Shown in pieces: positions 1-9,067 of a DNA stretch of 9,067 nt. Under the pieces are notes generated by a model. It had not been told where the DNA came from, made no database searches, and saw nothing but the letters and a program-made list of their open reading frames with translations. The translations under genes were made by a program, and so were the position numbers. The stretch is from a virus. Lineage: Monodnaviria > Loebvirae > Hofneiviricota > Faserviricetes > Tubulavirales. The stretch lies in the IMG/VR virus record IMGVR_UViG_2660238346_000022; one strand, 5' to 3'. Numbering within the stretch: position 1 is the first letter of the stretch; every line of letters starts with the position of its first letter.

Positions 1-359
1 TGCGCAATCAGATAAACATCCCAGCCCAGCTTACGGGAATGTATCAGCCAGTCAATTAACGGTAACCTGTCCTTACGGGCAAAACCACGGGTATTCAGCC
101 ATGTCGCACACTCATCAAGAAATAACGCCCCGAAGCGTGTTTTTTCATTTTCAGGGCATCCACGACCAAGAAGCTCAAAGTCTTCAATGCGGGGCATAGC
201 CGGAATAACCGTAACGGGGTTATCCGAACCTGAGGACATATATTCAGTGTTAAGCGGAAAATTTGCCGCAACCCGTAATCCACGGCGATAATAAAGTGAG
301 GCAAAATAAGCTGCGACAATACCTTTACCCTGCCCCAGATTACCCGTGATAACTGGCAT
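1..359 (-). CDS. Zot/pI-like assembly ATPase, first copy, N-terminal 119 codons only (rest lies before window start)
   Basis: ATG at 359-357; same sequence as 8469-8827 apart from synonymous changes at 66 and 234. Encodes [13 protein letters not shown] (Walker A). Confidence 0.8.
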
Positions 360-374
360 AACTTACCCGCAAAA

Positions 375-734
375 TTACTTGCCAACATTAAGCCCATTTG
401 ATTTAAATAAATCATAAACCAATCGATACACTCTATCCTTATAAAGATATATGTATGAAATAAATTGAACATGGAGGATGATATTAAAGCAGTACTGAAT
501 ATTTAAAGGCAGGTAACTGAATGCAACTACAATAACATCGAGTTTATTAACATCGGAGATTTGACGAATAATAAAATTGACGGCAGATACAAGAGCATAA
601 TATGAAGTGTAGCAAAGACCAAGATAAGAAAGGAGCTTAGCCCATGCAACAGCTTTATCACCGATAACTCCTGCAATGAAACGTAGTGATTTTAAAACAA
701 CATCAACAAAAAAAGCACCTAAAATGGCCCACAT
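375..734 (-). CDS. pVI-like minor coat / membrane protein (119 aa)
   Basis: Hydrophobic 119-aa ORF between the pIII-like gene and the pI-like gene, as gene VI is in Ff phages. Its ATG (734-732) overlaps the TGA of the upstream gene by 1 nt. Confidence 0.6.
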   Translation of the reverse strand: MWAILGAFFVDVVLKSLRFIAGVIGDKAVAWAKLLSYLGLCYTSYYALVSAVNFIIRQISDVNKLDVIVVAFSYLPLNIQYCFNIILHVQFISYIYLYKDRVYRLVYDLFKSNGLNVGK

Positions 735-2098
735 CAGAGTTTTACCTCACGTTCAAATAATGTACGGCGAGAAATAACAAAAACGCGTAACATGGTTATC
801 ATATAAATAGCATATTCAAGAACAGAACGAACATAATCGTCATAAGCTTTTGCAAAATGGCTTGTATCAATCTTGAAATTAATCGCGCCAATCAACGGAA
901 GATTAAAGCTAAACTGTAAAGTAAAAGGAAGAGCAGTTCCATTATTTGTATTTACCAGTTTGTCAATATTAACTGTAAGCCAATTGTTATTATCATGACT
1001 CTCACTTCCCTGTCCTGGCAAATAATGCGAAAGCTCCCCTAAAGGGAAATCCCCATCAGGCAAAGAAGAAGCTATATTCTGACTAATATCTTTAATACCA
1101 TTGTCCAGTGAATTTAATGCATTATTCATATCAGCCTGAGAAACAGAAAAAGCATTATTTAAATCATTCACTGACACCCATATTGTTTTTAACCAGCCCA
1201 AAATACCATCAAGCCAGCCATTGTCATCGCCGGATGAGCCACCGGATCCTGAACCTGAACTACCGCTACCGGATGAACCGCCGGAGCCCGAGCCGGAGCC
1301 ACCGCTACCGGATGAACCACCGGAGCCAGAACCTGAACCACCACTGCCGGATGAGCCGCCGGAACCCGAGCCGGAGCCACCGCTACCGGATGAACCACCG
1401 GAGCCAGAACCTGAACCACCACCGGAACTGCCGCCGCCTGGGTTACCACCACCGGAACTGCCACCACCTGAGCTACCGCCATCCTCCTTACCATCGGAGA
1501 ATGCAGGATCTACAGCAACTGGTTTCCAGTCGGCAGTACAAACTGTATCATCATCGGGATTACAAATAAGAGGATTACCGGTTGCCTCATAAATACACCC
1601 CTGCACATTAACATAACGGGTCCCGTCATCACCTTTATAAACATCAGAAAAAGTCATACCATCAAGAACCGGACGAGAAAGACAAATCTCGTCAGTTGGC
1701 GGCTTATTATATTCAGGTGTCAAATCCCCCTCACCACCCTGAAAAGCAAGGGTGCAGGCTGTCCACTTTTGCTTGTCTGAATCCCAGACTTTATATGCTG
1801 ACCACCGGGCACGGACAAAAGACCCGACAGTCGAAGGTGCATTAACAGGCGTGGAAAGTGGCACACCACAATAATGAATTATTCCGGAACATGCGTCATA
1901 ATTGCCCGAACCACAGAAAAGATGACCGGCCGCCCTGGCTAATTTAATCGACGTCCCCGCGTCCGAATAATCTGTCCTGCAGGATGAATGGCCTGCACAC
2001 TGAACAAGTGCATCCGGATTTTCTTTCTCTTCAGCGAAAGAAAACGAGGAAAAGAACAAAAACAGAAGCGGAATAATAAAGTGAATCAAAAAAAACAC
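734..2098 (-). CDS. pIII-like adsorption/minor coat protein with N-terminal signal peptide and long Gly/Ser linker (about 454 aa)
   Basis: N-terminus FFLIHFIIPLLFLFFSSFSFA then EEKENPD; Cys-rich N-domain; GGSSGGG/GSGSGGSS linker; hydrophobic C-terminal anchor. ORF-track start at 2098 is GTG with AGGA directly abutting it; TTG at 2089 has better AGGAG spacing, so the start is uncertain by 9 nt. Confidence 0.75.
   Translation of the reverse strand: MFFLIHFIIPLLFLFFSSFSFAEEKENPDALVQCAGHSSCRTDYSDAGTSIKLARAAGHLFCGSGNYDACSGIIHYCGVPLSTPVNAPSTVGSFVRARWSAYKVWDSDKQKWTACTLAFQGGEGDLTPEYNKPPTDEICLSRPVLDGMTFSDVYKGDDGTRYVNVQGCIYEATGNPLICNPDDDTVCTADWKPVAVDPAFSDGKEDGGSSGGGSSGGGNPGGGSSGGGSGSGSGGSSGSGGSGSGSGGSSGSGGSGSGSGGSSGSGGSGSGSGGSSGSGSSGSGSGGSSGDDNGWLDGILGWLKTIWVSVNDLNNAFSVSQADMNNALNSLDNGIKDISQNIASSLPDGDFPLGELSHYLPGQGSESHDNNNWLTVNIDKLVNTNNGTALPFTLQFSFNLPLIGAINFKIDTSHFAKAYDDYVRSVLEYAIYMITMLRVFVISRRTLFEREVKL
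1215..1480 (-). repeat. Imperfect 39-bp tandem repeats (about 4-6 units) encoding the Gly/Ser linker of the pIII-like protein
   Basis: Units such as accgctaccggatgaaccgccggagcccgagccggagcc recur with small changes; they translate to a 13-aa Gly/Ser period. Confidence 0.7.
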
Positions 2099-2109
2099 TC
2101 CTGGTATGA

Positions 2110-2133
2110 TTAAAAAAGCGCCCCGGAGGGCGC
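2110..2133 (-). terminator. Rho-independent terminator after the major coat gene
   Basis: Plus strand: aaaaaa (2112-2117), then stem gcgccc (2118-2123), loop cgga, stem gggcgc (2128-2133). On the minus strand this is a GC stem followed by a T6 run, 17 nt after the coat stop. Confidence 0.6.
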
Positions 2134-2149
2134 TGTCGTTAAATAACTA

Positions 2150-2392
2150 TCAGGTTGCGCGGGAAAGGAAGCCTTTAATGATACCGATACCCAGACGGGC
2201 AGCGAGTGAAACACCAAGAACGGCAAATGCCGCCGTACCTGCAATGCCAATCACACTGGTGAGCGCGTCACCAATTTCTTTAACAGTATCAGCAGTAATA
2301 AAAGACGGAACACTAACCGCAGCAGAAGCCGGAAGCGCAGCGACAGAAGCAGTCGTTGCCAGACCAGATAAAACAAGGGTTTTCAGTTTCAT
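2150..2392 (-). CDS. Major coat protein (pVIII-like), 80-aa precursor
   Basis: [24 protein letters not shown] signal-like leader, then a mature segment with hydrophobic core and basic C-terminus ([10 protein letters not shown]). ATG at 2392 is preceded by GAGGAA. The ORF-track start at 2410 lacks an RBS. Confidence 0.8.
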
Positions 2393-7215: not shown

Positions 7216-7272
7216 TTCCGCTTCCTCGACCACTCGCTCACTACGTTCGGTCGCTGGGTCTGCGGCGAGCGG
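7216..7272. promoter_or_regulatory. ColE1 primosome-assembly-site-like element, copy 2
   Basis: Same element at the start of repeat copy B. Confidence 0.45.
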
Positions 7273-7554
7273 TGCCATCACAAGCGCAACTGAAGCATTC
7301 TGCCTCTCTGTTCATCCGTCAGACCTGCCAGTCCGGCAGGCAGGTGCAGTCCATGGAAACAAAGCACGGATTAAGCTGCGGTGCACACTACAGGGGAGCA
7401 CGCTGTCAGCCATCAGTTTCATCAACAGGCAACACCATCGCCTGTACGCGTCGTGTTCTGCACAGCCAGTAAGCTGGTTGACCATGTCAGCAAAGAGCAT
7501 AAGTGCCCGAAGCAGGCAGCAGAGCGTAAGTGCCCGGGGCCGGTAATGGTGCCT

Positions 7555-7611
7555 TTCCGCTTCCTCGACCACTCGCTCACTACGTTCGGTCGCTGGGTCT
7601 GCGGCGAGCGG
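7555..7611. promoter_or_regulatory. ColE1 primosome-assembly-site-like element, copy 3
   Basis: The partial third repeat copy consists of exactly this element and ends at its last base. Confidence 0.45.
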
Positions 7612-7624
7612 AGTGTCCTCTGTC

Positions 7625-8827
7625 TTATTTACCATTCACATCAAACGAAAGCATTTTGTCAGTCAGCACATCCCCCTTTGATGCCGTTCCCGATGAGCCT
7701 GACCAGAACGTCACTTTTTCACCGTCAACATTCAGTTCCGTGGCGCTGCCGTTCCATGGCTGAAAAGCGGTATAACGTCGCACCTGACCAGCCGGACCCA
7801 GCAGCACAAAATAAGGACTTGCTCCCCTGACATATCCGGCAAGCCGCCACTCCTTTGATACCGGAAGCACATCCGGTTTTTTCTGTCTCAGCTCTGATAC
7901 AACCGTAGACGCAGGCAAAGGATGTGCAGGTGTCACGGTGCTTTCAGGGACAGCGGCACTAACCTCCCGATCGCCGGAGAAATAATGTCGGGCAACGGCA
8001 ATCATCGCGGTGACGAGGAAAAGAAAGGCAATCAGCTTGCCCCACGGCTTTTTCTGTGAGGTGGCCTTTTTTTCGGGTTGTTGAGATAACGGATTCATTG
8101 TTTTAAGTGTGCGCCCGGGCAAAACGGAATAAACAGCACGCATATCCACAAAACAACCATTAAGCAGCTCCATTCCGTCAGAGAAAATGAAATTAGTGTC
8201 GTAAACGTTGTAATAATCCGCAGCCCTGATAATGATTTTATCTACGGGACGACGTGCCGCGTGAATCGTGCCGTCATAAAGAAACGTACTGGCAGCCACG
8301 TAATGAGGAATAATCCCCCTTTTGCCTGATGCAACCCCTGTTTTTCCTGGTCTGAATAATTCCATCAGTGGCGTAATCACAGGAACACGTAATTCATCAA
8401 GACGGCGGCAGCGAATAATTTTAGCCCCCATCGCCTTAATTATCTGGGAATCAATCATATCTTCATGCTGCGCAATCAGATAAACATCCCAGCCCAGCTT
8501 ACGGGAATGTATCAGCCAGTCAATTAACGGTAATCTGTCCTTACGGGCAAAACCACGGGTATTCAGCCATGTCGCACACTCATCAAGAAATAACGCCCCG
8601 AAGCGTGTTTTTTCATTTTCAGGGCATCCACGACCAAGAAGCTCAAAGTCTTCAATGCGGGGCATAGCCGGAATAACCGTAACGGGGTTATCCGAACCTG
8701 ATGACATATATTCAGTGTTAAGCGGAAAATTTGCCGCAACCCGTAATCCACGGCGATAATAAAGTGAGGCAAAATAAGCTGCGACAATACCTTTACCCTG
8801 CCCCAGATTACCCGTGATAACTGGCAT
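7625..8827 (-). CDS. Zot/pI-like phage assembly ATPase (400 aa), second copy, complete
   Basis: Walker A GNLGQGKG; segments [43 protein letters not shown] and [10 protein letters not shown] match conserved Ff gene I protein segments as recalled. Internal TM segment [15 protein letters not shown], then a C-terminal domain. Confidence 0.9.
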
Positions 8828-8843
8828 AACTTACCCCGCAAAA

Positions 8844-9067
8844 TTACTTGCCAACATTAAGCCCATTTGATTTAAATAAATCATAAACCAATCGATACAC
8901 TCTATCCTTATAAAGATATATGTATGAAATAAATTGAACATGGAGGATGATATTAAAGCAGTACTGAATATTTAAAGGCAGGTAACTGAATGCAACTACA
9001 ATAACATCGAGTTTATTAACATCGGAGATTTGACGAATAATAAAATTGACGGCAGATACAAGAGCAT
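8844..9067 (-). CDS. pVI-like protein, second copy, C-terminal part only (start lies beyond window end)
   Basis: Same sequence as 375-599 of the first copy, offset by 8469 bp after the 1-bp indel. Confidence 0.6.
   Translation of the reverse strand, partial: ALVSAVNFIIRQISDVNKLDVIVVAFSYLPLNIQYCFNIILHVQFISYIYLYKDRVYRLVYDLFKSNGLNVGK

Follow-up and report, generated by a model that had tools for sequence, protein, structure and literature searches.

A 9067-bp stretch of DNA, the virus record IMGVR_UViG_2660238346_000022 (Tubulavirales), was analysed over its full length, referred to here as the window, and corresponds to the complete draft contig CCCD01002328.1 of assembly GCA_000939215.1. The two ends of the window repeat one another imperfectly. 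We consider it probable, at roughly 0.75, that the contig crosses two unlike head-to-tail copies of a filamentous Escherichia coli prophage lying in an array at dif, the phage being a Xer-exploiting one of the CTXphi type. In the best reading of the contig, the last third of an upstream, secretin-deleted copy is followed by the copy junction and then by the opening two thirds of the following copy. The upstream portion would comprise the tail of the pVI gene, a zot gene of one haplotype (B), a secretin gene ruined by a deletion and a 145-bp repeat, and the phage attachment site attP, while the downstream portion would comprise the regulators, the replication protein Rep, the coat genes, pIII, pVI, and zot of a second haplotype (A).

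An imperfect terminal repeat and its two haplotypes

Global alignment and self-BLAST agree that positions 1-598 match positions 8469-9067 from end to end at 99.5% identity, a match that cannot have arisen by chance. The repeat period is 8468/8469 nt, and the window spans 1.07 units. There are exactly two mismatches between the copies, C66/T8534 and G234/T8702, and a single 1-nt gap (ACTTACCCGC at 361-370 and ACTTACCCCGC at 8829-8839), which are the differences that the first-pass annotation had listed. The gap lies between the pVI stop codon (375-377 / 8844-8846) and the zot start codon, in a run that reads CCC at 366-368 in copy A and CCCC in copy B. Because the extra C sits in copy B, copy A of the repeat is 598 nt and not 599 nt, so that the repeat length of 599 nt and the 16-nt spacer given by that annotation are right for copy B and have to be shortened to 598 nt and 15 nt for copy A. 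Its assignment of both substitutions to synonymous third positions in the Zot-like gene is borne out by comparison of the codons, which are AGG/AGA at Arg98 and TCC/TCA at Ser42 when zot is read on the minus strand from its start, which is position 359 in copy A and 8827 in copy B. All 119 Zot residues that can be seen in both end repeats are identical. Under the array reading, the copy A repeat would be part of the downstream phage copy and the copy B repeat part of the upstream one.

A circular genome that had been wrapped by the assembler would be expected to end in an exact k-mer overlap, as had been argued before us, and the overlap found here over 598/599 nt is not of this kind, with three differences at sites of natural polymorphism. 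It could still be proposed that the contig is a wrapped circle or a collapsed repeat whose ends disagree through mistakes in sequencing or consensus calling, a miscounted homopolymer among them. A change in run length (CCC and CCCC), which is a classic type of error, does indeed account for one of the three differences, and the CCC form is unique among the relatives compared. Both substitutions, in contrast, are synonymous and fall at known polymorphic sites with the known alternative alleles. When 10 distinct full-length relatives are considered, 27 of the 599 columns of the repeat are variable, both substitution sites are among them, and the same two alleles are found at each; the chance that two random errors would hit known sites with known alleles is approximately (27/599 x 1/3)^2, or roughly 2e-4. 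The run is itself naturally variable among strains, and the same pair of haplotypes is found again in a contig of a separate assembly, described below. We therefore regard error as a barely credible source of the end differences. The alleles at the polymorphic sites, taken with a run that varies in nature, indicate that the sample contains two real haplotypes and that the three end differences are not errors. Across loci L001 and L007-L035, the coding strand of the pVI-zot spacer (360-374 and 8828-8843 in the window) has 3, 4, or 5 G or the form GGGTT according to the strain, and this G-run overlaps the likely ribosome-binding site of zot. An attempt to derive the assembler k from the end offsets was dropped, as the 65 nt past site 66 suggests a value of about 65-66 and the 229-232 nt past the run at the other end do not fit it.

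The arrangement of the two haplotypes is best seen in the sister contig L017 (CDRO01002335.1, 11,781 bp), the first base of which is the same base as the end of the window. Positions 1-599 of this contig are 100% identical to haplotype B over the 599 nt, and are followed by a deleted secretin gene, attP, the same 66- and 82-aa regulators, Rep, pIII, and pVI. One unit later haplotype A is reached, with G and C at the two substitution sites, and the run reads GGGTT where copy A of the window has GGGT. After that come a second zot, a secretin gene that is intact (PF00263), and a regenerated dif, AGTGCGCATAA-TGTATA-TTATGTTAAAT, which consists of the phage XerC arm followed by the core and the XerD arm of dif. 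In L017 it is thus the upstream copy whose secretin gene is deleted, and in the downstream copy this gene is intact. The repeats of L017 differ at 27 of 1861 positions, and 5 of the 10 codons that distinguish its zot copies are non-synonymous. The statement in the first-pass annotation that the copies differ only by neutral changes consequently holds for the 599-nt overlap and fails beyond it, given these codons and a secretin gene that is deleted in one copy and intact in the other. In two further loci, L018 and L019, a deleted-secretin copy has further copies beside it, in which the regulatory module differs. Just past the regenerated dif, L017 (11567-11781) does not continue into the usual ydeT-side flank of the other fetched loci; this segment has matches at thousands of sites on the chromosomes and plasmids of E. 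coli, and at some of these an IS3-family (IS911) transposase is annotated. From these matches it looks like the end of an insertion sequence, which is probably why the contig stops there.

The sister contig also bears on a second explanation, in which the window is a single circle (a replicative form or episome), or one prophage assembled past its start, from a sample with two variants, so that the ends are alleles of one locus. The two variants could come from two strains or from a prophage and a diverged episome. We judge this unlikely, although several observations suit it. The contig has no chromosomal flank and covers just 1.07 units, its attP region is whole, just as it would be in a free circle, the number of contigs implied for the assembly (see below) suits a mixed or poor sample, and YpfPhi, a filamentous phage of Yersinia pestis, persists extrachromosomally in some hosts (PMC4266046). 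However, an intact attP is equally expected at the internal junctions of an array; it fits a free circle and an array interior alike and therefore cannot decide between them. What speaks for the array is L017, from a separate assembly, in which the order of the two haplotypes is the same, each haplotype goes with its own secretin state, and a regenerated dif is linked to them.

A third possibility is that the assembler stitched on the second haplotype from a related filamentous prophage at another chromosomal site, one candidate being a truncated copy between ybiB and hcxB beside an IS110-family transposase gene. Many E. coli genomes do have a second zot/pVI segment of ~97% identity away from dif, as in locus L001 and the second locus of TD225-C4. 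The haplotype of the L001 type, T/G/CCCC, fits neither end of the window, however, and such segments are only ~97% identical, whereas the ends of the window are collinear from zot through the spacer into pVI and agree with both array copies of L017. This makes such a source very unlikely.

Several points weigh against our preferred reading, that of two unlike copies in an array at dif. A scan for XerC arms found no terminal hybrid dif site within the window, which also has no chromosomal sequence, and a contig without chromosomal flank cannot by itself prove an array. Integration and tandem order in this particular genome are instead deduced from the sister contig and from relatives. The sequence that is present twice amounts to just 599 nt, and the two copies could have been collapsed into a mosaic over the 7.9 kb that separates the ends. 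The contig numbering implies >2,300 contigs in the assembly, which is compatible with a chimeric assembly or a sample of mixed origin. The assemblies that yielded the sister contigs belong to one accession series with that of the window and are fragmented to a similar degree, and a systematic artefact could be common to them all. Finally, the CCC run of haplotype A is absent from every relative compared and may combine an error with a genuine G/T difference, as the second copy of L017 has GGGTT. The tandem copies put forward by the first-pass annotation are accordingly favoured, though indirectly, by the dif-linked haplotype pair of L017 and by arrays in closed relatives.

The attachment site and arrays at dif

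The attP region of the window contains two inverted dif-like sites. On the minus strand, which is the coding strand, the first site reads AGTGCGCATAA-TGTGACACGCG-TTATGTTGAAA and has an 11-nt core, TGTGACACGCG. The second site, TTTTATACATAA-CGTCA-TTGTGCGCACT on the coding strand, has a 5-nt core and pairs with the first. The DNA of this region is predicted to fold at -40.9 kcal/mol (z = -10.3), and none of 200 shuffles folded as well. The packaged strand was assumed to be the coding strand. A single-stranded attP of two inverted dif-like sites, with XerC and XerD arms and an irregular central region, is a trait of the CTX class and is present in the window. The other traits of this class are seen in relatives: integration at the host dif, with a hybrid dif also present in L017, and the regeneration of one dif while the other junction has an 11-nt core. 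Together with the RstA-like Rep, the attP hairpin and the CTX-kind junctions of the relatives uphold the CTXphi-type label that the first-pass annotation had given the phage.

Close relatives of the window are prophages in human E. coli isolates, at 94-98% identity, and in loci L004, L006/L002, L008-L016, and L026-L028 the prophage lies between hipA and ydeT, the dif locus. The junction on the hipA side, GGTGCGCATAATGTGACACGCG, has the structure GGTGCGCATAA-TGTGACACGCG-TTATGTTGAAA, in which a chromosomal XerC arm of the G type is joined to the phage 11-nt core. The far, or terminal, junction is a regenerated dif of the same form as that of L017, and the sequence of this hybrid site is AGTGCGCATAATGTATATTATGTTAAAT. 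The internal copy-to-copy junctions in the arrays of L008, L010, and L017 are identical to the attP junction of the window (6074).

Among closed genomes, dif is occupied by a single copy in L004, by three copies that are 99.97% identical in TD225-C4, and by two copies in strain 100416. Unlike copies within one array occur in the multi-megabase contigs UGBV01000003.1 and UGDN01000003.1, and neighbouring copies in UGDN01000003.1 differ at site 66 itself. The array in CM127711.1 (NZ_CM127711.1) probably has about six copies, as judged from coordinates only. These arrays agree with published accounts, in which dif-integrated inoviruses make doubles to quadruples with copies that are "not always identical" (PMC7307601; PMC4266046). 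A relative without the attP and regulatory region is found away from dif, between ybiB and hcxB, in locus L001 (12001-20355; NZ_AP041814.1 903398-911752), where its Rep gene directly adjoins one that carries the annotation IS110-family RNA-guided transposase. Many strains have second copies like this one, among them TD225-C4 with its second locus. In locus L029 (1-14600; ENA ERZ27295051 k141_91192), a member of the window's family has a different inovirus, with a Phage_CRI Rep, G5P, DUF2523, Zot, and a secretin, immediately upstream of it, and this locus appears to be an array of mixed families.

Phages of the CTXphi class use a single-stranded attP and XerC exchange, integrate irreversibly, and produce phage by rolling-circle replication from tandem copies (PMC4246890). 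If the window's phage behaves in the same way, the two inverted dif-like sites of its packaged strand would form a hairpin in imitation of dif, XerC would swap one pair of strands with the chromosomal dif, and replication would complete the insertion. The regenerated dif could then take the next phage, possibly a different one, and it is because one dif is regenerated that arrays of non-identical copies are possible. The 11-nt central region of the other site would presumably be unusable by Xer, and for that reason the prophage would not be able to excise. With excision impossible, phage DNA would have to be made by replication from origin to origin: Rep would nick the origin of one copy and stop at the origin of the next, releasing a hybrid genome by the rolling-circle route, and hence a second copy would matter for production. 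We infer the dependence on Xer, the irreversibility, and the need of an array for virion production from this likeness to CTXphi.

Gene content and the secretin remnant

All phage genes of the 8.47-kb unit are on the minus strand, with a small divergent regulatory module upstream of Rep (Table 1). The gene set expected of the Inoviridae is present as a co-oriented block of ~6-9 kb with an HUH Rep, a Zot/pI ATPase, a pIII-like protein, and small coat proteins, and has support from the profiles PF05840, PF05707, and PF05357 and from PHROGs 91, 1675, 8482, and 1944. The Rep is ~30% identical to RstA of CTXphi and to the Rep of fs2/VFJ. Its cluster at 90% identity has about 2,000 member sequences, and a protein identical to the pVI-like protein is found in 1629 blocks of the public collection. 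In the block of small genes, the 141-aa protein matches PHROG 30648, and the 80-aa protein (2150-2392) has a signal peptide, a hydrophobic core, and a basic tail, features that make it the likely major coat protein. An Rfam scan of the window gave no family at the gathering threshold.

Table 1. Features of the 9067-bp window, with positions from its first base.
Feature	Position	Strand	Description
Terminal repeat, copy A	1..598	-	Haplotype C66/G234/CCC; zot codons 1-119 (359 down to 3), spacer 360-374, 3' part of pVI-like gene 375-598
pVI-like minor coat protein	375..734	-	119 aa
pIII-like attachment protein	734..2089	-	451 aa; PF05357; PHROG 8482 'attachment protein'
Small virion and DNA-binding block	2150..3150	-	141 aa (2725-3150), 58 aa (2580-2756), 67 aa (2417-2620), 80 aa (2150-2392); putative roles from position and sequence features
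Rolling-circle Rep, RstA-like	3181..5181	-	666 aa; PF05840, E 3e-48; PHROG 91 'nicking at origin'
Regulatory module	5174..5756		82-aa open reading frame 5174-5422 (-) and divergent 66-aa open reading frame 5556-5756 (+); PHROG 2503 and 3104, function unknown
attP	5979..6076	-	Two inverted dif-like sites round a GC-rich hairpin (XerC-arm scan)
Secretin (pIV/GspD) remnant	6128..6850	-	Last 136 nt of the gene (6128-6263) and a 145-bp 5' piece in four copies (6264-6850)
Repeat region, zot to secretin remnant	6904..7611		57-bp segment in three copies (6904-6960, 7216-7272, 7555-7611) bracketing two ~255-280-bp units
zot / pI-like assembly ATPase	7625..8827	-	400 aa (403 aa in relatives); PF05707; PHROG 1675 'protein I of M13', E 1e-50
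Terminal repeat, copy B	8469..9067	-	Haplotype T8534/T8702/CCCC; 5' end of zot, 16-nt spacer, 3' 222 nt of pVI-like gene cut by the contig end

Between attP and Rep, the regulatory module has been exchanged in copies that are otherwise much alike (L008, L010, L012, and L018), which have a 62-aa protein, a 108-aa helix-turn-helix (HTH) protein, or a 153-aa HTH protein where the window has proteins of 66 and 82 aa. In relatives the pIII-like protein is 425, 451, 461, 487, or 497 aa long, and its linker length is a hot spot of variation. In the window, this Gly/Ser-rich linker is encoded by repeats of 39/78 bp at 1230-1480, as detected by Tandem Repeats Finder (TRF).

The secretin gene is usual in the window's lineage, while a pIV secretin of its own is optional for a member of the Inoviridae, and the copy in the window has lost it. 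Comparison with L001, L002, and L004, together with TRF, indicates that ~0.9 kb of the gene is missing. The 145-bp repeat that adjoins the deletion is present in 4 units of 99% identity, and its length is not a multiple of 3. What is left is a fusion open reading frame of 100 aa, in which Pfam detects no Secretin domain, whereas the intact copy in L017 has PF00263. The same 100-aa fusion, with 2-4 repeat units, occurs in 14 contigs of the sister assemblies, which are nine assemblies with neighbouring accession numbers. As the same deletion recurs in 14 contigs of 9 assemblies, it is a real and recurrent allele with a variable number of repeats. An exact 40-mer over the deletion junction had no match in viral contigs, genome-representative contigs, or JGI metagenome contigs.

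It is tempting to ask whether the deleted copy has a role of its own. The upstream copy could be a satellite-like derivative without secretin that is kept beside an intact helper in several related diarrhoeagenic E. coli, so that the genome that can be released lacks the secretin gene; we offer this as a doubtful, tentative suggestion. By the CTX rule, a two-copy array of the L017 type would release a hybrid without the secretin gene, and the terminal intact copy would act as the resident helper. If this were true, it would be an E. coli counterpart of the division of labour between RS1 and CTXphi, in a lineage for which no description was found.

Between zot and the secretin remnant lies a repeat region for which TRF gives a period of 312 in 1.9 copies, in agreement with self-BLAST. 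Each of the ~255-280-bp units contains an open reading frame of 83-93 aa on the plus strand with no match in Pfam, and the ~312-bp unit is also found in other E. coli inoviruses. The 57-62-bp segment alone matches 353 mostly small plasmids at 90-99% identity, 271 of which are mobilizable. We take this segment to be like the primosome assembly (n'-pas/ssi) region of ColE1/pBR322, which would make a complementary-strand origin possible, a lead that has the many small plasmids in its favour. Folding gave no support to this idea, since the DNA of the 57-bp repeat, considered as a primosome site of the hairpin type, folds no better than its shuffles.

Known dif phages and what a probable array would mean

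One of the closest known parallels is with the CTXphi and RS1 arrays of Vibrio cholerae. The window shares with them the filamentous phage itself, a Rep with ~30% identity to RstA, an attP hairpin of inverted dif-like sites with a bulged central region, insertion at dif that regenerates one dif, and head-to-tail arrays in which unlike or defective elements are allowed. It differs in its E. coli host, the absence of toxin genes, and a protein identity that is low throughout. CTXphi is not known to have a secretin gene of its own, whereas the window's family normally has one. For the phage of the window, irreversibility, Xer dependence, and hybrid virion genomes would be predictions from this parallel.

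Other filamentous prophages at dif are found in enterobacteria. YpfPhi of Y. pestis and CUS-1 of E. coli O18:K1:H7 are listed as CTX-type (PMC4246890), and are 99% identical to each other over 7.1 kb (PMC4266046). YpfPhi forms tandem arrays of 2-4 copies, and superinfecting copies insert into the array (PMC4266046). As judged from database matches and source names, the window looks like a lineage separate from YpfPhi and CUS-1. This appearance follows from the lack of any match in a megablast of the window against the phage collection, from the absence of any Yersinia name among 92 Rep homologues (E <= 1e-20), many of which are matches without a name, and from the 41-49% identity of the nearest Rep proteins outside E. 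coli, which belong to Salmonella, Providencia, Morganella, and Xenorhabdus. Source names for the members of the Rep cluster and for the homologues are almost all E. coli, and a locus search based on Rep in the genomes that represent species gave no close relative.

UPphi901 and its relatives, which are Lineavirus-like phages of the Enterobacterales, are likewise E. coli inoviruses that form tandem doubles and triples at dif (PMC7307601). The downstream copies in such multiples are 'not always identical', and they become collapsed in assemblies of short reads (PMC7307601). Unlike those of the window, their structural genes resemble those of IKe and I2-2 (PMC7307601). No paper describing the lineage of the window's phage was found in the literature.

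Arrays of unlike copies at dif are well known for phages of the cholera-toxin type, and the case of the window is real but ordinary; it leaves the current understanding of Xer-exploiting phages unchanged. There is a practical lesson for small phage-like contigs with imperfect terminal overlaps, which are not to be trimmed as circular genomes, because the overlaps here would mark an array of unlike copies. The phage family itself is widespread in human E. coli. Given the CTX-type architecture of its attP, the structure of the array probably decides whether a lysogen releases phage and which hybrid genome is released, and the recurrent copy with the deleted secretin gene is a case in which dependence on a helper can be tested.

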